Source: Bryobacterales bacterium
GTDB taxonomy: Bacteria > Acidobacteriota > Terriglobia > Bryobacterales > UBA6623
NCBI GenBank assembly: GCA_965217195.1
Contig: CBDCHL010000003.1
Location: forward strand, 157,260-221,259
DNA: 64,000 nt
Direction of reading: 5' to 3'
Shown here: positions 31,335 through 41,093 of the stretch, piece by piece
Layout: the number at the start of each line of letters is the position of its first letter
Numbering within the stretch: the stretch's first letter is position 1
The notes under the pieces: generated by a model
What the model saw: the letters and a program-made list of their open reading frames with translations, nothing else
Databases searched by the model: none
Told to the model about the DNA's origin: nothing
Translations under genes and position numbers: made by a program

Positions 31335-32819
31335 ATGCGGGAATTCACGCTTTGGTTCAGCGACAACGGCGTCGCCGTCGGGGTCCTCGCCGCCTTCATT
31401 GGCCTGATGATTCTGTCGGCCTGGCGGGCCAACCGGCGTCATGAAAGCCGGCCCGGCCCGGTAGTGATCGCCGTTTCTTTTTACGCCACTTTCCTCAGTA
31501 CGAATACGTTCCTCGGCCAATCGGGCTTCGGATACAAGGTCGGCGTCGCGTGGCTGCTGGCCGGGCTGGTGTTCTTGCTGTGCGCGATTGTCGCCTGGTT
31601 TGTCGTCGCCAAACCGATGATTCTCGACGCCCGAGCGGTGCTGGGGGACGACTTGGATTTGGATCGCGTCACCGTCCCGGCCTACTTGCGAAAAAAGTTC
31701 GGAGGGGACGCGATCGGGTACATCAGCGCCGGCGTCGTCTTTTTCGCGTCACTGCTTTACATGCTCGCGGTGTTTAAGGGAATCGGGCACATCGTAAGCC
31801 GGATCTTGAACCTCTCGTATGAAACGGCGGTCATGACGGTTTTCGTGCTCGTGGTGGCTTACACGTCGTGGGGGATGATTCGGGCAATTCTGCACACAGA
31901 CACCGTGCAGGGCGGCATCATGGTCCTGGGTGTGTTTGCGCTATTCGCGGCCTGTGTCATGCATGCCGACTGGAACGCCGTCGCCGCGAGCCCGGATCTT
32001 GACGCCGCGGGTGCGCCGCTCGCGGGCAGGCTTCTTTCCTGGGACGTCCTGATGTCGCCGTTGTTGATCGTCGGGCTGTCGCTCAGTACGGGAATCAAGA
32101 TGATGGTCGCGCCTCGCTTGGTGGTGCGCTTTTTGATGTTTCGACACGCCTCGGGCCGGCAGATTCAACAAGCGAAATGGCTGACGGTCGGCTTGATGGG
32201 AATCACCGTGCCGATGCTTTTTTCGCTCGGAATTCTCGCCCACGGAATCGTCCCACAAGCTGAGTCGCAGTTCTTCTTTCAGAATACGGATCAGGTGGTT
32301 CCCTACTTGGTGGACCGACTGTTCGGGAGTTTCTGGGGCGCGGTGTTGCTGGGGAGTTTTCTTTGCGCCGCGCTGTCGTCGATTGACTCCGTGCTCCACG
32401 TGGCCGGTTCGGCGTTGGTGGTCGACGGATGGGCTCAATGGCGTCGGTCGGCGACGGAAGCCGCGATCGACAAACTGCAGCGCTGGGTCATGATCCCCGT
32501 GGCGGCGCTCCCGGCTTTATTGGCGCTCGACCCGCCCGACGACGTGGTTCCGCTGACGGCGCTTTCAGGAGCGCTGTTCGGGGCCTGTTTCTTTCCGACT
32601 TTGGTCATGAGCCTGTGGTGGAGGCGAGGCCGGCGAGCAGTGTTGGCGTCGATCGTCGGGGGCGGAGTGGCGGTTACCGTTTGGTCGGCCGGGCTGGGCG
32701 CGGCAGTGGGTTTGCCGGCGATTCATCCTGTTTTCGCGGGATTGATTGTTGCGGCGGTTGCCTATGCCTTTACGCCCGGGACGGCAAGCGACGAGAGATC
32801 TCGGACCGGGGGCACGTAA
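31335..32819 (+). CDS. polytopic membrane transporter, sodium:solute symporter-like
   Basis: 494 aa with about 12-13 hydrophobic segments. The family call rests on overall topology only. Confidence 0.5.
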   Translation: MREFTLWFSDNGVAVGVLAAFIGLMILSAWRANRRHESRPGPVVIAVSFYATFLSTNTFLGQSGFGYKVGVAWLLAGLVFLLCAIVAWFVVAKPMILDARAVLGDDLDLDRVTVPAYLRKKFGGDAIGYISAGVVFFASLLYMLAVFKGIGHIVSRILNLSYETAVMTVFVLVVAYTSWGMIRAILHTDTVQGGIMVLGVFALFAACVMHADWNAVAASPDLDAAGAPLAGRLLSWDVLMSPLLIVGLSLSTGIKMMVAPRLVVRFLMFRHASGRQIQQAKWLTVGLMGITVPMLFSLGILAHGIVPQAESQFFFQNTDQVVPYLVDRLFGSFWGAVLLGSFLCAALSSIDSVLHVAGSALVVDGWAQWRRSATEAAIDKLQRWVMIPVAALPALLALDPPDDVVPLTALSGALFGACFFPTLVMSLWWRRGRRAVLASIVGGGVAVTVWSAGLGAAVGLPAIHPVFAGLIVAAVAYAFTPGTASDERSRTGGT

Positions 32820-32870
32820 TTCGGCCACATGGAATGGACGACTTCACTAAACATAGTCACAATTAGTCAT

Positions 32871-33329
32871 ATGGAAACTGCGGTGAAAATCACCGAGTTG
32901 AAGGCTCGTCTAAGCGCCTATTTGCGGCTGGTTCGGGCGGGCGGCGCAATCATCGTCAAGGACCGCGATACGCCGGTCGCACGGCTGGTTCCCTATCAAC
33001 AGCCGAAGCGCCTAAGAATTCGCCCACACACACGCTCGGTGCGCGAAATCGACGAAATGCTCAAAGCGCGAACGAAGGATGTCGACCTGCCGCCCCGCTC
33101 GACGGACGAAGTTCTGAAGGAAACCCGAAAGGATTATTTCGATAAATGGCCGGCGTCGCAGTCTACCTCGGGGGAAAACGGGGGGGGGGAACCGGGACAG
33201 CCTCGATTGCGATTGCTGAGAATTCAGTGGCCGCCCACTAGAGGCTTTCGATTCAGCAGATTAGCAGAGGTTCATCGGATATTTGCTGATGTCCGGCACC
33301 ATGGTAGGAATCAGTCGAGATCAATGTAA
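32871..33329 (+). CDS. Phd/YefM-type antitoxin with a 3' end replaced by repeat sequence
   Basis: It begins METAVKITELKARLSAYLRLVRAGGAIIVKDRDTPVARLVPY, a typical antitoxin N-terminus. From about 33171 the ORF is translated repeat-B sequence. The same string appears in ORF 34409..34699. Confidence 0.6.
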   Translation: METAVKITELKARLSAYLRLVRAGGAIIVKDRDTPVARLVPYQQPKRLRIRPHTRSVREIDEMLKARTKDVDLPPRSTDEVLKETRKDYFDKWPASQSTSGENGGGEPGQPRLRLLRIQWPPTRGFRFSRLAEVHRIFADVRHHGRNQSRSM

Positions 33330-33379
33330 TCAATGAGTTGGGCAACCTCATTGATGAAATCGAGGCTGTCCAGGTTTCC
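33188..33379 (+). repeat. inverted-repeat element, family B, copy A (192-bp core; arms extend to about 33170-33397)
   Basis: The terminal IRs are GGAACCGGGACAGCCTCGATT ... AATCGAGGCTGTCCAGGTTTCC. The outer subrepeats are G-rich on the left and C-rich on the right. It is about 93% identical to 34428-34619. Confidence 0.7.
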
Positions 33380-33408
33380 GCCCCCCGGTTTCCGCCCTAA
33401 CGGAGGCT

Positions 33409-34122
33409 CTAACACTCTTCCACGTCGAAAGTGACTTGCTCAATCCGTCTAACGGCCGTCGTTGAGTCACGGTCACTCATCTCGACGCCCTCGACAACTT
33501 TCTCGCTGTGTTTCCATAGGAACTTCGCGAGTGCCAAAAAGCCATTATAAACAACATGATTGCGAAAATACAGCGAAACGCTATCCCCGAACGCCCCCTC
33601 CGTTGTGGACTCTTTCGGGAGACCGATAACCACACGGTTGGGTGACGCCATGAGAATGTTTATGGGAAAGAACTGCTGTCTATGGTATATACCAATTTCC
33701 ACATTTGCTTTTCCCGCAAATTCGTGGATTAACCTTGTAACGTGCGGCTTGTCCAAATCGCTGCGAAGAACCACAATGCGGCGATACGCGTCGAATCCGT
33801 CGTCTCGTAACATACGGATTGTTCTGTCAAAATAATTGTGGCGGTCGAGTTCTTGATTGTTATAAGCGGCGTACACAAAAACGCTCTCGCCTTCTGCGCT
33901 TTTGAGCACCCGGTCAAGTAGATCTAAAGTCGGACGGTAACCGCGTGCCAAGAACACTGCGTGGAGGCCTCTATCGGTGGCGACTATGATTGTTACGGTC
34001 AGACCAAACACCAATGCCCAGACCATAAAAACCAGGGAATCGTGGTCCACTGCTAGACTAGCTACCCCGGCAGCAGCGGTTGTTACAGCAAACGTTGCTC
34101 CGACTCGGGTTAGGATGGACAC
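33409..34122 (-). CDS. hypothetical membrane protein (two N-terminal TM helices + ~185-aa alpha/beta-looking domain)
   Basis: 237 aa. The TM segments are GATFAVTTAAAGVASLAV and LVFMVWALVFGLTVTIIVA. GC is roughly 40-48% by hand count. I recognise no family. Confidence 0.6.
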   Translation of the reverse strand: MSILTRVGATFAVTTAAAGVASLAVDHDSLVFMVWALVFGLTVTIIVATDRGLHAVFLARGYRPTLDLLDRVLKSAEGESVFVYAAYNNQELDRHNYFDRTIRMLRDDGFDAYRRIVVLRSDLDKPHVTRLIHEFAGKANVEIGIYHRQQFFPINILMASPNRVVIGLPKESTTEGAFGDSVSLYFRNHVVYNGFLALAKFLWKHSEKVVEGVEMSDRDSTTAVRRIEQVTFDVEEC

Positions 34123-34427
34123 GACGTCTCAAGAAGCGGTATCTGACGGAGCCCCTAGTGGTTTGTTCCAAAAGTGCACGGTAGTAAATCGGAGAAACGT
34201 AGCCGAATGCCGACACTTTGCCCCCGATCCCAAGTGGTTGACGCCAAAGCTTTTCCGTGCCGCGACCGTGAGGGATCGGTTCTTCGATCGCAGCCTCAGC
34301 ATCGTACGTGAATTTTCGAAAGAAAGCACTAGGGGGTCGGGGTAGGCCGTCCCTGATTATAGCCACGATTCCCGTTCCGCCGCGTGGACCGACAGCAAAC
34401 CAGCCACTGTGACGTGGATTGTGGGGC

Positions 34428-34619
34428 GGAAACCGGGACAGCCTCGATTGCGATTGCTGAGAATTCAGAGGCCGCCCACTAGAGCATTTCGATTCAGCAG
34501 ATTAGCAGAGGTTCGTCAGATGTTTGCTGATGTCCGGCACCATAGTAAGAATCAGTCGAGATCAATAGAATCAGTGAGTTGGGCAACCTCATTGATGAAA
34601 TCGAGGCTGTCCCGGTTCC
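34428..34619 (+). repeat. inverted-repeat element, family B, copy B (192-bp core; arms extend to about 34423-34655)
   Basis: The terminal IRs are GGAAACCGGGACAGCCTCGATT ... AATCGAGGCTGTCCCGGTTCC. It is followed by GGTTCCCCC x4. Confidence 0.7.
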
Positions 34620-34681
34620 CCCCCTGGTTCCCCCGCGGTTCCCCCGGTTCCCCCCGACCCGATCTCCCCCCCAAGGACTTT

Positions 34682-36259
34682 TCAGGATTCTGTGTCTAGA
34701 AGTCGAATCACTGGAGGTGTTGCACGTTGAGGACAGACCAGAATGTGGAACGGCAGCACCTTCCTGAATTCGCGGTATGCCGTCGGAATAGCCGACAGGT
34801 CGCGAGACTCGGAAGAGAGAGCTGCCCAGCTCTGTGGCCGATTCGGGAAGCTGGAAACGTTTGTCCCATCTTTTGTCCGCCAGGTGAACACGTCCTCCGG
34901 TCGGTCTGGGGCAAACTCATTTTGCTCGCAGAATGTGACTTTGCGCCATTTCGCCGCAATCAGGTCCCGCTGGCCACGACGCACGAGCATCTCAATTACG
35001 CTTCGCAGAATATACGAACTACCCCTATAGCCTTCTAGGTCTTCATCCTGAAGACGGTCAGGAATCGAGGTCGCCAGAACGTCCTCGATTCCCAAATACG
35101 GACTGGGAAAGACCGCTCCTTTCTGCCCGGCGTTCGACTCTACAAGGGCCACGAACAGTTCCTCTAGGAGCTTTTTCGCGAGTGCCTGTTCCTTCCTGAC
35201 CTCTAGAAACTTGATGATCCAGAAGATATAAGGGAAGGCCGATTCACCCCAAAAACCCCGTCTCTGAAAGTGATCGCGGATGAGCTTCTGAACGTCATCT
35301 GGCGACTTTTCGGACTTAGCTTTCCCGTCTGAAAGAAGCTCGTGACACGCAAGCGCCCCAAGCACGATGGTTGTTCTAGCGCGGAGCATCTGTCCGCCAT
35401 CGGCCCGAACGTCGCCTTCCAAGAAATCCGTTCTGGTGAGAGCCGACTTCCGAAGGAGTGCAAGATTTGCTTCGAGCTCCGCCATGACCAGTTTAAGCGA
35501 GTCCCCCCAGTGGTCCGATGGTATCGAATGTTTAATCACGTAGCGGGCGATACACGCAGCAAGAATGGACCAGCCTTCTGCCATTGCGTAGTGGTTCGCG
35601 GTCTGTTCGAATGAGTTCAGCAGATAGCTTACGATTATGAGGCTGCTAGTGATGGCATCAAGGGCATCCGACTTCTTGCTTGGGGATTCACCAAAGACAG
35701 TGCCATCGAGCACGGCAAACAGCTTCGCCTTGGGAAGCATGCTCCGCCCGTCCTCGAGATACAATTCGAGGAAGGTGCGCATGTCCGGAAGAGCCCTTGG
35801 CACGAAACGCCCTTGCGCATCGACGAACGATTTCAGAAGTGAATCCCTGCCGATCACCTCCAGATGGGCGTACTGACGGTTCTTCCGTACGTTGTCCTCG
35901 TTGCGATCGCTGATCTGAACCCTGACCGGGTCGGTGATTGTGCCGTTCGTGACAAGGTAGGCCTTGTGCGTCTTAGATTTGTTCACGCCCGGATAGTTGA
36001 TCGGTAGTTCCACCAACTCATCAATCTCTCCCTTGATGCTGCGCCACTCCCTCAAGTCCACATCGCCGGTTTTGGTCTGGTAGCCGTGATATTCGACGTC
36101 AGGACCCTTCGTAATGATGTCCTTGCCCTGTTCCATCGGCCCATGAGAGGAGGAGTAGAGTACGCGGTGACGCTGGTGTATGAGCACTTGACAGAACGCT
36201 GCCTGGTAGTTACGTTCGTTGGTCTTAGTCAACCAGTTTTCGATTGCTCTCTCGATCAC
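34682..36259 (-). CDS. Mrr/PD-(D/E)xK-like nuclease N-terminal domain fused to ~370-aa unassigned domain
   Basis: 525 aa. GTG 36259 has GAGAGGAA 4 nt upstream. Residues 15-155 read ERNYQAAFCQVL..HGPMEQGKDIITKG..YHGYQTKTG...HKAYLVTNGTITDP...LEVIGRDSLL. This follows the E / D / QxK order and the trailing Mrr_cat-like strand-helix. Confidence 0.55.
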   Translation of the reverse strand: MIERAIENWLTKTNERNYQAAFCQVLIHQRHRVLYSSSHGPMEQGKDIITKGPDVEYHGYQTKTGDVDLREWRSIKGEIDELVELPINYPGVNKSKTHKAYLVTNGTITDPVRVQISDRNEDNVRKNRQYAHLEVIGRDSLLKSFVDAQGRFVPRALPDMRTFLELYLEDGRSMLPKAKLFAVLDGTVFGESPSKKSDALDAITSSLIIVSYLLNSFEQTANHYAMAEGWSILAACIARYVIKHSIPSDHWGDSLKLVMAELEANLALLRKSALTRTDFLEGDVRADGGQMLRARTTIVLGALACHELLSDGKAKSEKSPDDVQKLIRDHFQRRGFWGESAFPYIFWIIKFLEVRKEQALAKKLLEELFVALVESNAGQKGAVFPSPYLGIEDVLATSIPDRLQDEDLEGYRGSSYILRSVIEMLVRRGQRDLIAAKWRKVTFCEQNEFAPDRPEDVFTWRTKDGTNVSSFPNRPQSWAALSSESRDLSAIPTAYREFRKVLPFHILVCPQRATPPVIRLLDTES

Positions 36260-36824
36260 GCCATTCCTCTCGCTTCTTGAGCATGATTTCTCTGTATCTG
36301 CGCTGAAACAATGGGTCGGACTGCGATTGGGTCATAAGTTGACGAACACGTTCTGCCTGGTCTGGGTGGACAACAAAACGCACTGCGGAAAGATCAGGCT
36401 GACCGGACGAATCGAAATCAATCTGTACCCTTTCAAGCATTTTGAAGAATAGCTCGGCGGAGAAGGGCTGTCCCGCAGCGTCGATTTGGTTGCCAACCCG
36501 TGCCGTCGCCTCGCTAGTCTTCCGAAGGATCATCTCGTGCATGGTTTGAATCTGAAGTTCGACAGATTTCCGCTGGCTCTCGATAAGCGCATCTACCCCA
36601 CGCTCGATGATTGCCGACCGCTCAACCTCGCATGGAATCGCCGTAATCTCTGGAGTTGACTCCTCCACGTGCCCGTCGACATCACCCGAAGTGAATCTTC
36701 CTCCCTCAAAATACGGCGTGGCTTTGATCGCACCTATCAACGGGTCGGCGCGAACCTGCTGTCGAAACTCAAACTCGGCCAACCTTAACAAACGGCCTTT
36801 CAACGTGGGGAAATCGGGCAGCAT
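36225..36824 (-). CDS. hypothetical protein, upstream partner overlapping the nuclease-like gene by 35 nt
   Basis: 199 aa. ATG 36824 is the first start after an in-frame stop at 36942-36944. I recognise no family. It ends ...MLKKREEWRDRESNRKLVD. Confidence 0.55.
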   Translation of the reverse strand: MLPDFPTLKGRLLRLAEFEFRQQVRADPLIGAIKATPYFEGGRFTSGDVDGHVEESTPEITAIPCEVERSAIIERGVDALIESQRKSVELQIQTMHEMILRKTSEATARVGNQIDAAGQPFSAELFFKMLERVQIDFDSSGQPDLSAVRFVVHPDQAERVRQLMTQSQSDPLFQRRYREIMLKKREEWRDRESNRKLVD

Positions 36825-37024
36825 CGTTCCGCGTATCGAACCAATCTGATTCTCGTCGAGTCTCCGACTGAGAGTAACAGACGGGGAAGTTGGAGGGTAG
36901 TCGGAAGGGAAGGTCGAGGGCGCCTTGCCCCGGCGCGAATTCTAAGCCGGCCGCATAAGCGGAAACCAGCCGGAATACGCGTGACGCGGTCCGGGAGGCT
37001 CACCGAGGTCGTTGACCCGGGCCG

Positions 37025-37482
37025 CTAGAGAGGAACCGGGACGGTTTCGAGGATTTCTTCGAGGGCTTGGGTGCTGCGCTCGCCGGCGTGGCCGCTTCCA
37101 AACCGCGTGTCGGGTGCGGAGCGATGGGCGAACACGGGAACAGCCAGCCGTTTCACGTGGTGCGGCGTGCAGTAATCCAGCCCCTCCATTAACGCCAGCG
37201 CCTGCGCGGCCCGGTAGAGCGCGATCGATCCTCGCGGGCTTACGCCCAGCGCCAGCCGTTCGTGATCGCGGGTTTTCTCTACGATTGCCATGAGGTAATC
37301 GACGACGGCGTCATCGACGCGCACTTGCTCGACCTGCGCCTGTAGCTCGGCAACGTCGTGCGCTTCGGCGACCGGCTCGACGCGGCTTGCGAGCTCAGCG
37401 TGGTTCGACCGCAGAATCTCGCGCTCGCTCGCCGGGTCCGGATAACCCATCTGAATCCGCATTAAGAAACGGTCCAACTGCG
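37025..37482 (-). pseudogene. 3' fragment of a second, diverged moxR gene
   Basis: 152 C-terminal codons are colinear with 40134-40591 and differ at 4 amino acids. The homology starts at the stop codon and ends abruptly at 37482. The upstream part of ORF 37025..37627 is unrelated to MoxR. Confidence 0.85.
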
Positions 37483-37675
37483 CAACCCTTGCCAGCAAGC
37501 GAGGATTCAGCCCCGCGACGACTTGCCTACGACCGGCAAACTCGAAAGTGTTGGTGGAATCGGGAACCCTTTTTTCACCACGACAGCGGTCGCGATACAA
37601 TGTTGTCCTGCCCACCATTTCAGGCACAACTTCGACAACGAATCGTCACTGAAAGATTACTAGAATGTCCTCGTC

Positions 37676-39067
37676 ATGAACTCACTCATCCGCACCGTTC
37701 TCCTGTTACTTGCCCTCACTGCCCTATCAGTGGCCCAAGACTGGCCGCCGAACGTGGTTGTTATTTTCGGCGACGACATTGGCTACGGCGACGTCGGCGT
37801 CTTCGGACACCCCACGATCCAGACTCCCAACCTGGATCGCATGGCACACGAAGGCCAAAAGTGGACCAGTTTTTATGCGGCGGCGAGTGTCTGTACGCCA
37901 AGCCGTGCGGGGCTGCTCACCGGCCGGCTCCCCGTCCGCAGCGGCATGATGCACGGTCGCATCCGAGTCCTTTATCCCGAGTCTTGGAGCGGCCTGCAAC
38001 AGAGCGAAGTGACCATCGCGGAGATGCTCAAGCAGAAGAACTACGCAACCCGGCATGTGGGCAAATGGCACCTCGGCCACCTCCCAGACTATCTGCCAAC
38101 GAAGCAGGGGTTCGACTCCTATTTCGGCATTCCGTATTCGAACGACATGGACGCGACCGAACCAACCGCGGCCGCAAGGAGACACGCGCTCCTCAACCCG
38201 ACGAAGATCGACTACTGGAACGTCCCGCTGATGCGCGACGAGGAAGTAATCGAGCGCCCAGCCAACCAATTTACGATCACAAGACGATACACCGAAGCAG
38301 CGGTCATGTTTATTGATGCCAACAAGGAAAAGCCCTTCTTTCTCTACTTCGCCCACACGATGATGCACGTGCCGCTGTTTCGCTCGAAAGCGTTCGAGGG
38401 GCGCAGCATAGCCGGCATTTTCGGGGACGCGATGGAAGAGGTGGACTGGTCGGTCGGGCAGGTGCTCGACACCATCCGCAAGCACGGTCTTGAGGAAAAC
38501 ACGCTGGTCGTCTTTACTTCCGACAACGGCCCTTGGCTGACCTTCGGCACACACGGCGGATCGGCCGGTCCGCTCAAGGAAGGGAAGGGCTCGACCTGGG
38601 AAGGCGGCATGCGCGAACCAACGATCATGTGGTGGCCGGGCACGATCAAGGCCGGCACGACCGTCAACGAGATGGGCTCGACACTCGACCTAATTGCGAC
38701 CATCGCAAGCATCAGCGGGACAAAATTGCCCGACGACCGTAAGCTGGACAGCTACGATCTAACGCCGGCGATGAAAGGTACCGGACCGAGTCCGCGTAAG
38801 GAAATGTTCTACTGGCGCGGTACTGAGTTATTCGCCGCCCGCATGGGTGACTACAAGGCGCACTTCTTCACGCGGACCGGCTACCGCGACCGCGGCGAGA
38901 CGCGGCAGACCCCGCCGCTGCTCTATCACCTGGGCCACGACCCTGGCGAAAAGCATGACATTTCGCGCGAGAACCCGGACATCATCGCCAGGATCACGGA
39001 GATGGCTCGCAAGCACAAAAGTGGCATTGACGAGGTCGAGAACCAGTTGGCGAAGATCAATCGCTAG
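37676..39067 (+). CDS. arylsulfatase-family sulfatase, secreted
   Basis: A signal peptide is followed by the formylglycine motif CTPSRAGLLTGR, with DDIGYGD and GKWHLG. Confidence 0.85.
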   Translation: MNSLIRTVLLLLALTALSVAQDWPPNVVVIFGDDIGYGDVGVFGHPTIQTPNLDRMAHEGQKWTSFYAAASVCTPSRAGLLTGRLPVRSGMMHGRIRVLYPESWSGLQQSEVTIAEMLKQKNYATRHVGKWHLGHLPDYLPTKQGFDSYFGIPYSNDMDATEPTAAARRHALLNPTKIDYWNVPLMRDEEVIERPANQFTITRRYTEAAVMFIDANKEKPFFLYFAHTMMHVPLFRSKAFEGRSIAGIFGDAMEEVDWSVGQVLDTIRKHGLEENTLVVFTSDNGPWLTFGTHGGSAGPLKEGKGSTWEGGMREPTIMWWPGTIKAGTTVNEMGSTLDLIATIASISGTKLPDDRKLDSYDLTPAMKGTGPSPRKEMFYWRGTELFAARMGDYKAHFFTRTGYRDRGETRQTPPLLYHLGHDPGEKHDISRENPDIIARITEMARKHKSGIDEVENQLAKINR

Positions 39068-39999: not shown

Positions 40000-40133
40000 A
40001 AAGGTTTCCTTCCAGGAGCAAGGTTATCGGAAGGCCGGGCCGGGTAGCAAGAGCCGTATCTGCGGGGTCTCACGCAACTCTCTCTTGATCAGAGAATTGG
40101 ACAATTGGCCCGTGTTGTCGCCATGACTCTTCG

Positions 40134-41093
40134 CTAGAGAGGGACCGGCACCGTTTCTAGAATCTCTTCGAGCGCTTGGGTGCTTCGCTCGCCGGCGTGG
40201 CCGCTTCCGAACCGCGTGTCGGGTGCGGAGCGATGGGCGAAGACGGGAACAGCCAGCCGTTTCACGTGGTGCGGCGTGCAGTAATCCAGCCCTTCCATTA
40301 ACGCCAGCGCCTGGGCGGCCCGGTAGAGCGCAATCGAACCTCGCGGGCTTACGCCCAGCGCCAGCCGTTCGTGATCGCGCGTCTTCTCTACGATTGCCAT
40401 CAGGTAATCGACAACGGCGTCATCGACGCGCACTTGCTCGACCTGCGCCTGTAGCTCGGTAACGTCGTGCGCTTCGGCGACCGGCTCGACGCGGCTTGCA
40501 AGCGCAGGGTGGTTCGTCCGCAAGATCTCGCGCTCGCTCGCCGGGTCCGGATAACCCATCTGAATCCGCATCAAGAAACGGTCCAACTGCGACTCCGGCA
40601 GCGGATACGTCCCGTGATACTCGATCGGGTTTTGGGTGGCGACCACCATAAAGGGTTCCGGCAGCGGGTACGAGCGCCTTTCGATGGTAACCTGACGCTC
40701 ATTCATGGCTTCGAGCAGAGCGGATTGCGTTTTGGGCGTGGTGCGATTGATTTCGTCGGCCAACAGAACATTGGTGAAGATCGGACCAGGCTTGAACTCG
40801 AATTCCTCGCGTCCCGCGCTATAAACGGTAACGCCCAAGACATCGCTCGGCAGCATGTCGCTGGTGAACTGGATACGGTGAAAACTGCACGCAAGACTCT
40901 TCGCCAGCGTCTGGGCCAGCGTCGTCTTGCCCACGCCTGGAACGTCTTCGATCAGGAGATGACCGCGCGCGAGCAAGCAAACGACCGCCAGCCGAACGGC
41001 TTCCGGTTTCCCGCGAATCACCGAGGCAAGCGACTGCTCGATAGCCGCCGCCTTCTCGAAAACCGCCGGGACTGTCGATGGTTCGACCGCCAT
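40134..41093 (-). CDS. MoxR-family AAA+ ATPase
   Basis: Walker A is DVPGVGKT and Walker B is LLADEINR. It also has VVATQNPIEYHGTYPLPESQLDRF. Confidence 0.9.
   Translation of the reverse strand: MAVEPSTVPAVFEKAAAIEQSLASVIRGKPEAVRLAVVCLLARGHLLIEDVPGVGKTTLAQTLAKSLACSFHRIQFTSDMLPSDVLGVTVYSAGREEFEFKPGPIFTNVLLADEINRTTPKTQSALLEAMNERQVTIERRSYPLPEPFMVVATQNPIEYHGTYPLPESQLDRFLMRIQMGYPDPASEREILRTNHPALASRVEPVAEAHDVTELQAQVEQVRVDDAVVDYLMAIVEKTRDHERLALGVSPRGSIALYRAAQALALMEGLDYCTPHHVKRLAVPVFAHRSAPDTRFGSGHAGERSTQALEEILETVPVPL

Follow-up and report, generated by a model that had tools for sequence, protein, structure and literature searches.

Several described systems built around a PD-(D/E)xK nuclease domain bear comparison with the locus considered here. 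Mrr of the E. coli type (PF04471) is a single polypeptide, with a winged-helix DNA-binding domain at its N-terminus and a PD-(D/E)xK domain carrying a D...QxK signature at its C-terminus, and it has restriction-modification (RM) systems alongside it. Shedu (SduA) is likewise a PD-(D/E)xK nuclease, with a catalytic Q and with Card1 and EndoMS (5gke) as its nearest structures, and in the two-component form known as KELShedu a small upstream partner of 110 aa, the two genes lying 3 bp apart, binds the nuclease, and the system acts by abortive infection. In Card1 and Cap4 a nuclease is fused to a sensor domain, and LmuA of Lamassu has an N-terminal Cap4-type PD-(D/E)xK head on a helical body and is found with the small protein LmuC in defence islands. 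The present subject is a pair of overlapping genes, here called A and B, in a 64,000-nucleotide stretch (the window) of a Bryobacterales bacterium (assembly GCA_965217195.1, contig CBDCHL010000003.1, positions 157,260 to 221,259). These form an obligate pair, in which B has a predicted Mrr-type nuclease head and A a novel fold, and which may well serve in defence. The pair had been picked out in an initial annotation, made from the nucleotide sequence and a list of its open reading frames (ORFs), the claims of which are taken up below with the results that bear on them.

Gene organisation and the conserved overlap

Gene A occupies positions 36225-36824 of the minus strand (ATG start and 199 aa in the ORF table) and gene B positions 34682-36259 of the same strand (GTG start, 525 aa). 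The two share the 35 nt from 36225 to 36259, in which the last 11 codons and the stop of A coincide with the first 12 codons of B, the latter being read in the +1 frame relative to A. A Shine-Dalgarno-like GAGAGGAA (36264-36271, minus strand) lies 4 nt 5' of the GTG of B, within the A codons for the residues R-E-E of KREEW. Both the 35-nt sharing and the placing of the GTG with this purine-rich stretch inside A had been proposed in the initial annotation, and both are borne out, the first by the ORF table and the sequence and the second by inspection of 36271-36264.

The same geometry recurs throughout the core branch of the family, to which the window belongs. In all 40 of its non-redundant loci the start codon of B (ATG in 20 cases, GTG in 18 and TTG in 2) is found exactly 35 nt upstream of where the A stop codon ends, and across loci a purine-rich GAGGA, AAGGA or CAGGA is common at the Shine-Dalgarno position. 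The DNA of the overlap is nearly invariant in this branch, with the consensus NTG ATNGAGAGAGNNATNGAAAAYTGGTTGAY TAA, and it specifies conserved peptides in both frames, namely ...WRDRESNRKLV at the end of A and MIERAIENWL at the beginning of B. Since the wobble positions of one gene are codon position 1 or 2 of the other, and since both peptides are invariant, it follows that both proteins are under selection within the overlap. Translational coupling from A to B is plausible given this conserved geometry: as the start codon of B and its Shine-Dalgarno sequence lie inside the last 12 codons of A, ribosomes engaged on A, presumably on one mRNA carrying both genes, would cross the initiation site of B, so that synthesis of the two proteins would be linked.

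A programmed +1 frameshift joining A to B was also considered, and was rejected because the start codon of B is kept at its exact position in 40 of 40 loci. No conserved RNA structure masking the start of B was detected (RNAalifold gave -1.4 kcal/mol, with essentially no covariation), nor was there any Rfam match within 32500-37700. Upstream of A is an intergenic region of 200 nt (36825-37024, minus strand), bounded by the truncated 3'-end duplicate of a MoxR gene that is described later, and it is here that a promoter for the pair is presumed to lie; a scan for consensus promoters gave no match in 36825-37024, and the promoter and terminator scans overall performed at chance level. At the other end, directly 3' of the stop codon of B, there is a G-rich tandem array (34611-34681) made up, on the B strand, of roughly four copies of GGGGGAACC-like units with a period of 9-11, which partly overlaps the end of one of two repeated elements in the window (see below) and could act as a G-quadruplex or as a terminator surrogate.

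The nuclease head of B

The AlphaFold2 (AF2) model of B is of good quality overall, with a predicted local distance difference test (pLDDT) score of 88.4 and a predicted template modelling (pTM) score of 0.88, and for residues 1-150 (35810-36259, minus strand) pLDDT is about 77-94. These residues form an alpha-beta-beta-beta-alpha-beta core, comprising a helix at residues 15-28, strands at 32-36, 48-51 and 57-63, a second helix at 69-84 and a last strand at 99-104. When the head was compared with the PDB using Foldseek, the best matches were NucS/EndoMS (2vld and 5gke, probability 0.98-0.99) and Card1 (6wxw, 0.80). An alignment of 55 sequences shows E43, G45, K46, D47, Q61, K63 and N105 to be invariant, giving the head the signature E43-x-G-K-D47...Q61-x-K63, and thus both of the features by which the PD-(D/E)xK superfamily is recognised are present, that is to say the core fold itself and, placed upon it, a conserved acidic residue at the start of the second strand with QxK on the third.

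Direct assignment to Mrr by sequence is less immediate, as neither B of the window nor 55 close relatives of it match the Pfam family Mrr_cat at E <= 1 or 0.1. The connection is instead made through a divergent branch, reached by way of a tblastn search of plasmids that returned one distant relative, on plasmid pdjl-6-4 of Rhodococcus qingshengii; there the two genes, a hypothetical one of 195 aa and one of 511 aa that NCBI names a 'restriction endonuclease', have exactly 35 nt in common. The B protein of Rhodococcus matches Mrr_cat with 22.8 bits (cutoff 21), about 12 of its 81 relatives carry PF04471, and this branch keeps the signature in the form EFGKDF...FQSKxG. Comparison of the B profiles of the two branches using hhalign gave a probability of 98.5% (E = 3e-15); the 375 aligned columns take in part of the body, which is partly conserved in the divergent branch at positions 293-424 of the hidden Markov model. 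For A, the corresponding comparison extended over the full length, with a probability of 96.9% and E = 1.6e-10.

Given that fold, motif and transitive sequence homology agree, residues 1-150 of B can confidently be predicted to adopt a PD-(D/E)xK nuclease fold of Mrr-like kind. This is what the initial annotation had suggested on the strength of motif order and spacing, with the proviso, now added, that the window protein itself falls below detection by Mrr_cat. Its question of whether residues 1-155 would model as such a fold is answered positively for residues 1-150, and the peptides it had quoted (ERNYQAAFCQVL, HGPMEQGKDIITKG, EYHGYQTKTG, HKAYLVTNGTITDP, LEVIGRDSLL and RYVIKH) are all present in the protein.

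The divergent branch is also of practical value, because among the relatives of the Rhodococcus B protein are some from Nocardioides, Paenibacillus and Bacillus in culture. In these genomes too there is a homologue of A, of 202-216 aa (E = 1e-14 to 6e-32), which overlaps B by 32 or 47 nt in the +1 frame. Overlap lengths in the divergent branch are therefore 32, 35 or 47 nt, with the frame relation the same as in the core branch. Pairs from cultured hosts include those of Bacillus sp. T33-2 (PGVB01000025.1), Paenibacillus sp. JJ1722 (CP182500.1) and R. qingshengii, whose plasmid pdjl-6-4 encodes WP_054801557.1 and WP_064075238.1.

The body of B and protein A

The remainder of B, residues 151-525 (34685-35809, minus strand), is modelled as about ten long helices and, C-terminal to these, a small alpha/beta subdomain. 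It contains a number of conserved motifs (LEGD..GDGG..R, WGESAFP, NPYY, GSSY, EDxFxW, QSW and PHR), and with Foldseek it gave weak matches to TPR and other solenoid structures at a probability below 0.55. Searches of Pfam and of PDB profiles returned nothing for the body, nor was any domain of the Walker, HNH, helicase or methylase kind detected in it, in keeping with the earlier failure to see any motif of these kinds (Walker A in the first case) in the C-terminal 370 or so residues.

A group of metagenomic homologues of B that are 706-710 aa long (P0025-P0029) might at first be taken for fusions of A to B. They are not: each consists of B followed by an unrelated C-terminal domain of about 185 aa (GWGSLVWDP...), with the pattern RIxxLGWGSLxWDP...EFSRVSxGxRLTLVID, for which no Pfam or PHROG match was obtained. 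Its GWGSL motif presumably recalls gamma-glutamyl-cyclotransferase or ChaC-like folds.

Protein A begins with an invariant MLPDF and ends in a nearly invariant tail, ...KREEWRDRESNRKLVD. At the N-terminus the wobble positions vary (CTG CCC GAT TTC in the window as against TTG CCG GAT TTT in locus L018), and the constraint there is thus on the protein. Its AF2 model has a pLDDT of 85.8 and no structural relative in the PDB or in BFVD. The single match that might have been thought informative, to an HK97-type coat protein in BFVD, has a template modelling (TM) score of 0.40, a probability of 0.11 and E = 4.6, and was judged insufficient. More generally, neither A nor B has a match in Pfam, NCBIfam, PADLOC-DB 2.0.0, PHROGs or PDB sequence profiles. 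That the smaller protein has no recognisable motif therefore stands after profile and structure searches, and from these same searches neither a named system nor a housekeeping family emerged for either protein.

Distribution and linkage of the two genes

Both proteins belong to substantial families. That of B comprises 424 clusters at 90% identity and, in an exhaustive profile search, 1,391 representatives at the 50% level (629 of them at E <= 1e-30), nearly all of which are 510-550 aa long and match from end to end. That of A comprises 96 clusters at 90% identity, and no member of the cluster families of A or B carries an annotation or a Pfam domain. A scan of genomes, limited to one per species, gave 39 loci, every one of them from a metagenome-assembled genome. 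The bacterial loci are from Latescibacterota, Acidobacteriota (many), Thermodesulfobacteriota, Chloroflexota, Actinomycetota, Saccharibacteria, Gammaproteobacteria, Myxococcota, Nitrospirota and Ignavibacteria, and the archaeal loci from Aenigmatarchaeota, Nanoarchaeota and Nitrososphaerota; overall the pair is spread patchily over about 12 bacterial and 3 archaeal phyla.

In 100% of the loci examined, in genomes and on metagenomic contigs (more than 45 independent cases), a homologue of A lies directly 5' of B. Co-occurrence, which had been named at the outset as a check on the pair, thus holds at every locus recovered, and since both ORFs have large conserved families and an identical overlap geometry in 40 loci, the association is far beyond chance. 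The two proteins also diverge in parallel (r = 0.91), A being the faster-evolving in 91% of pairwise comparisons.

A conserved third gene was looked for by clustering the flanking ORFs and was rejected, none being found; the immediate 5' genes are heterogeneous. In one Thermodesulfobacteriota lineage (L002 8433-9452 and L003 2549-3640; such labels denote individual loci) an extra, unannotated gene encoding 339-363 aa shares 10 nt with the start of A. It has no Pfam match and no homologue beside other pairs, and could represent a lineage-specific third component. In two Nitrospirota-like loci (L045, 5271-11792, and L055, 10642-13814) a gene for a 712-aa UvrD-type helicase follows the pair, and in L045 the pair has an AAA_15/AAA_21 ATPase in front of it as well, an arrangement that calls to mind a Gabija system with its components distributed to either side of the pair.

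Genomic context and proposed function

The pair bears a signature of horizontal transfer: in 32 of 33 loci it has a lower GC content than the sequence around it, the difference averaging -5.9 points and reaching -21. It is also found in the neighbourhoods of defence islands, and of 13 contexts annotated independently about 9 contain defence or conflict genes. These include a type I RM system with a PLD nuclease; an XcyI RM system with McrA and an IS21 element; TIR, a type III RM system and VapBC; a type III RM system with PIN directly upstream of the pair and DUF6602 and UvrD downstream; arrays of PIN/FitA (VapBC) modules; an integrase/TrwC element with Schlafen-AlbA2, PIN and NACHT; NERD with two reverse transcriptases, a MazG-like protein and transposases; a VgrG-EndoU toxin; and, on the Rhodococcus plasmid, an OLD endonuclease, an exonuclease, an AAA_15 fragment and a DEAD helicase. 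Further loci have DUF499, DEAD+MZB, methylase or AAA_15/UvrD neighbours, and in a census of the 135 nearest ORFs DNA methylases were the sole enriched class.

The explanation that we favour, and consider on balance the probable one, is that A and B together make up a self-contained, horizontally mobile nuclease module that acts against phages or plasmids, whether in a restriction-like or in an abortive manner. The argument is one from context, and is drawn from the obligate pairing in fixed geometry, the nuclease signature, the low GC content, the patchy distribution, the decay of some copies (discussed below) and the defence neighbours, together with the faster evolution of A, which is counted here because it is usual for sensor or regulator subunits. 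A further step, more tentative and falling a little short of what we would call probable, is to see in the pair an undescribed two-component immune nuclease of Bacteria and Archaea, in which a novel-fold partner and a helical sensor body control an Mrr-type head, co-expression being hard-wired by the frozen +1 overlap of 32-47 nt. Protein B would then be the effector, a metal-dependent DNA endonuclease acting through E43, D47, Q61 and K63 of its head, and its helical body might serve as a regulatory, target-sensing or oligomerisation platform. Protein A would bind B by way of its invariant termini, and would either gate the nuclease or supply recognition of the target or trigger; once activated, the complex would cut foreign DNA or, in an abortive response, the cell's own.

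A number of observations weigh against this. With A, B and the adjacent 237-aa protein of the window as queries, not one family of PADLOC-DB 2.0.0 (5,027 models) was matched at E <= 1. No sensor, DNA-binding or NTPase domain is recognisable in the body of B or in A, which leaves gating as a conjecture. The neighbour census was based on crude ORF calls with no matched background control and must be read qualitatively, and several loci lie amid metabolic genes, sometimes within an operon, and have no defence neighbour at all. Finally, the pair is absent from cultured phages, from IMG/VR contigs and from all but one PLSDB plasmid.

Decayed copies of the pair, of which there are six, bear particularly on the alternative that it is a selfish addiction module of the toxin-antitoxin (TA) type, in which B would be a toxic nuclease and A its labile neutraliser, and which would persist through post-segregational killing and not through protection from phages. 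The layout, in which a small gene comes first and overlaps that of a larger effector behind it, is that of such modules, VapBC/PIN-FitA and Phd modules often adjoin the pair, and low GC content, patchiness and decay would be expected here as well. Among five of the decayed loci, B alone is broken in two (L034 and L039) and both genes in three (L037, L043 and L044), so that an intact B beside a broken A is seen in none of them, as addiction would predict. In the sixth, however (L056), A has lost its first 55 or so codons along with the upstream region, and B is full-length and intact, a combination that ought to be lethal if A were indispensable as an antitoxin and B were not silent at this locus. 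In addition A has no recognisable DNA-binding autoregulatory domain, and a 'toxin' of 525 aa with a conserved body of 370 aa would be atypical of type II TA systems. The decayed loci are too few to be decisive, and on the whole we regard addiction as unlikely, while recognising that the boundary between TA and defence is itself blurred, many abortive infection systems being TA-like.

Another set of observations comes from a single chromosome (OZ244870.1) that carries the pair twice, at about 0.05 Mb (L018) and 0.71 Mb (L019), in two units of 2,908 bp that are 99.86% identical and consist of 110 bp of upstream sequence, A and B, and 600 bp of downstream sequence. Such a duplication might be thought to indicate that the pair is a homing or transposition-associated nuclease promoting its own spread, as might its insertion inside same-strand metabolic operons (L054, L015), the confinement of the low-GC signature to the pair itself and the frequency with which transposase fragments flank it. 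Against this, no domain of a transposase, integrase or recombinase is present in the unit, neither terminal repeats nor target duplications were seen where the duplicated unit ends, and nearly every genome has just one copy of the pair; the insertion sequences (ISs) that flank it are of many unrelated families, which makes them neighbours of the pair and not parts of it. Moreover, a related metagenomic contig (L004) has the left flank of L018 on one side of the pair and the right flank of L019 on the other, an arrangement that points to recombination between the copies and a large rearrangement, as opposed to transposition. A function in the mobility of the unit itself is accordingly thought distinctly improbable.

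Least probable of all is a housekeeping role in repair or recombination, for instance in the cutting of mismatched or branched DNA by an enzyme like NucS/EndoMS together with an accessory factor, for even though NucS/EndoMS provides the nearest solved structures of the head and some loci adjoin gyrA, DnaB or metabolic genes, the distribution is patchy and not lineage-wide, the GC content is off that of the host in 32 of 33 loci, pseudogenes are frequent, the surroundings of the locus vary among near-identical strains, and B has no NucS Pfam match and no NucS-type N-terminal domain, the sequence of its head being closer to Mrr_cat.

Should the favoured role in defence be confirmed, this would provide a function for a large unannotated family spanning Bacteria, lineages of the candidate phyla radiation, and Archaea, and, if the proposal is true in its fuller form, a new architecture of sensor or regulator (a helical body with a novel-fold partner) among restriction-like nucleases. 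The existence of members in cultured Firmicutes and Actinobacteria makes the hypothesis directly testable. Independently of function, the conserved dual-coding overlap offers a clean natural case in which to study how two proteins are constrained, and their expression coupled, when their genes overlap out of frame.

Surroundings of the pair in the window

The initial annotation had placed the pair on a lower-GC insert beside TA debris and repeats, and all three elements of this description were recovered. The GC content is 0.52-0.56 over 33000-37000, the flanks being at about 0.60-0.63. The N-terminus of an orphan Phd/YefM antitoxin lies at 32829-33329, and two copies of a 202-nt element resembling a miniature inverted-repeat transposable element (MITE), 92% identical to one another, are found at 33182-33383 and 34423-34624. 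These have terminal inverted repeats of 26-39 nt with the core CCGGGACAGCCTCGATT, and no other copies occur within the window. The left copy truncates the Phd/YefM ORF, and the repeat reads as 'GQPRLRLLRIQ...' in two spurious ORFs.

Between them the MITE-like copies bracket a gene (33409-34122, minus strand) whose product of 237 aa has two transmembrane helices at its N-terminus and could be assigned to no family beyond a weak hint of SLATT_1 (E = 0.076). Two near-identical sister contigs of the window lineage also carry the pair, and in each of them a different IS is found inside this adjacent gene, a 1,098-bp IS in L005 and a 1.8-kb DDE_Tnp_1_4 IS in L006. That the insertions differ marks the patch as a hotspot for mobile DNA, and the 237-aa protein may be the product of a separate conflict gene, either dispensable or toxic. 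The segment 42396-43493 of the window (1,098 bp) is 100% identical to the insertion in L005, where a DDE_3-type transposase was called, from which it follows that this IS is active in the window lineage.

On the other side, the 3' 460 nt of a MoxR-type AAA ATPase gene (40134-41093) are duplicated with 94% identity (37023-37482 against 40132-40591). The duplicate forms a truncated copy of 200 aa (37025-37627) that abuts A and B, with sulfatase and isochorismatase genes between the two copies, and the duplication may be the scar of an old integration or duplication event.

Comparison with known systems

No description of the pair was found in the searchable literature, and the papers on KELShedu, on END nucleases and on domain-centric discovery (2026) do not describe it. 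The view with which this analysis began, that its composition is unlike that of the known PD-(D/E)xK systems, has held up on comparison with Shedu, Hachiman and classical Mrr, as well as in the empty result from PADLOC. For Hachiman there is neither a PADLOC nor a Pfam match to HamA (DUF1837) or HamB, and no conserved helicase neighbour. Lamassu, judged on the features of the family described at the outset, is alike in having a PD-(D/E)xK head on a helical body together with a small protein, but the pair gives no PADLOC match to it, and has no SMC-like LmuB ATPase and no conserved third gene.

With NucS/EndoMS and Card1 the likeness is one of structure, these being the best structural matches to the head (probability 0.80-0.99), and with Card1 and Cap4 it extends to the joining of a nuclease to a sensor. 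In the case of NucS/EndoMS the structural match is confined to a nuclease core of about 125 residues and there is no Pfam match; the N-terminal domain of NucS and the CARF and SAVED domains are all absent, the body of B being all-helical and unrelated to them, and no cyclic-nucleotide synthase is linked to the pair.

Shedu shares with B the catalytic Q and the same nearest structures, and KELShedu shares in addition the two-component arrangement with a small upstream partner. B nevertheless does not match DUF4263 (PF14082) or the PADLOC SduA model at E <= 1; its domain order is the reverse of that in Shedu, which has no helical body; and the partner of KELShedu, at 110 aa against 199 aa, is unrelated to A in size, its gene standing clear of the nuclease gene where A overlaps B by 35 nt. 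The relation to Mrr is similar in kind. The catalytic signature and the company of RM systems are common to both, whereas in B the nuclease is N-terminal, no winged-helix DNA-binding domain was detected, and there is a novel helical body of 370 aa along with an obligatory overlapping partner of 199 aa.

What is familiar in this module is therefore its catalytic domain and its general logic, and what is novel is the body, the partner and the arrangement of the genes. By analogy, it would be expected to work most like the nucleases of Mrr or Shedu type, with a QxK PD-(D/E)xK domain joined to a sensing module.

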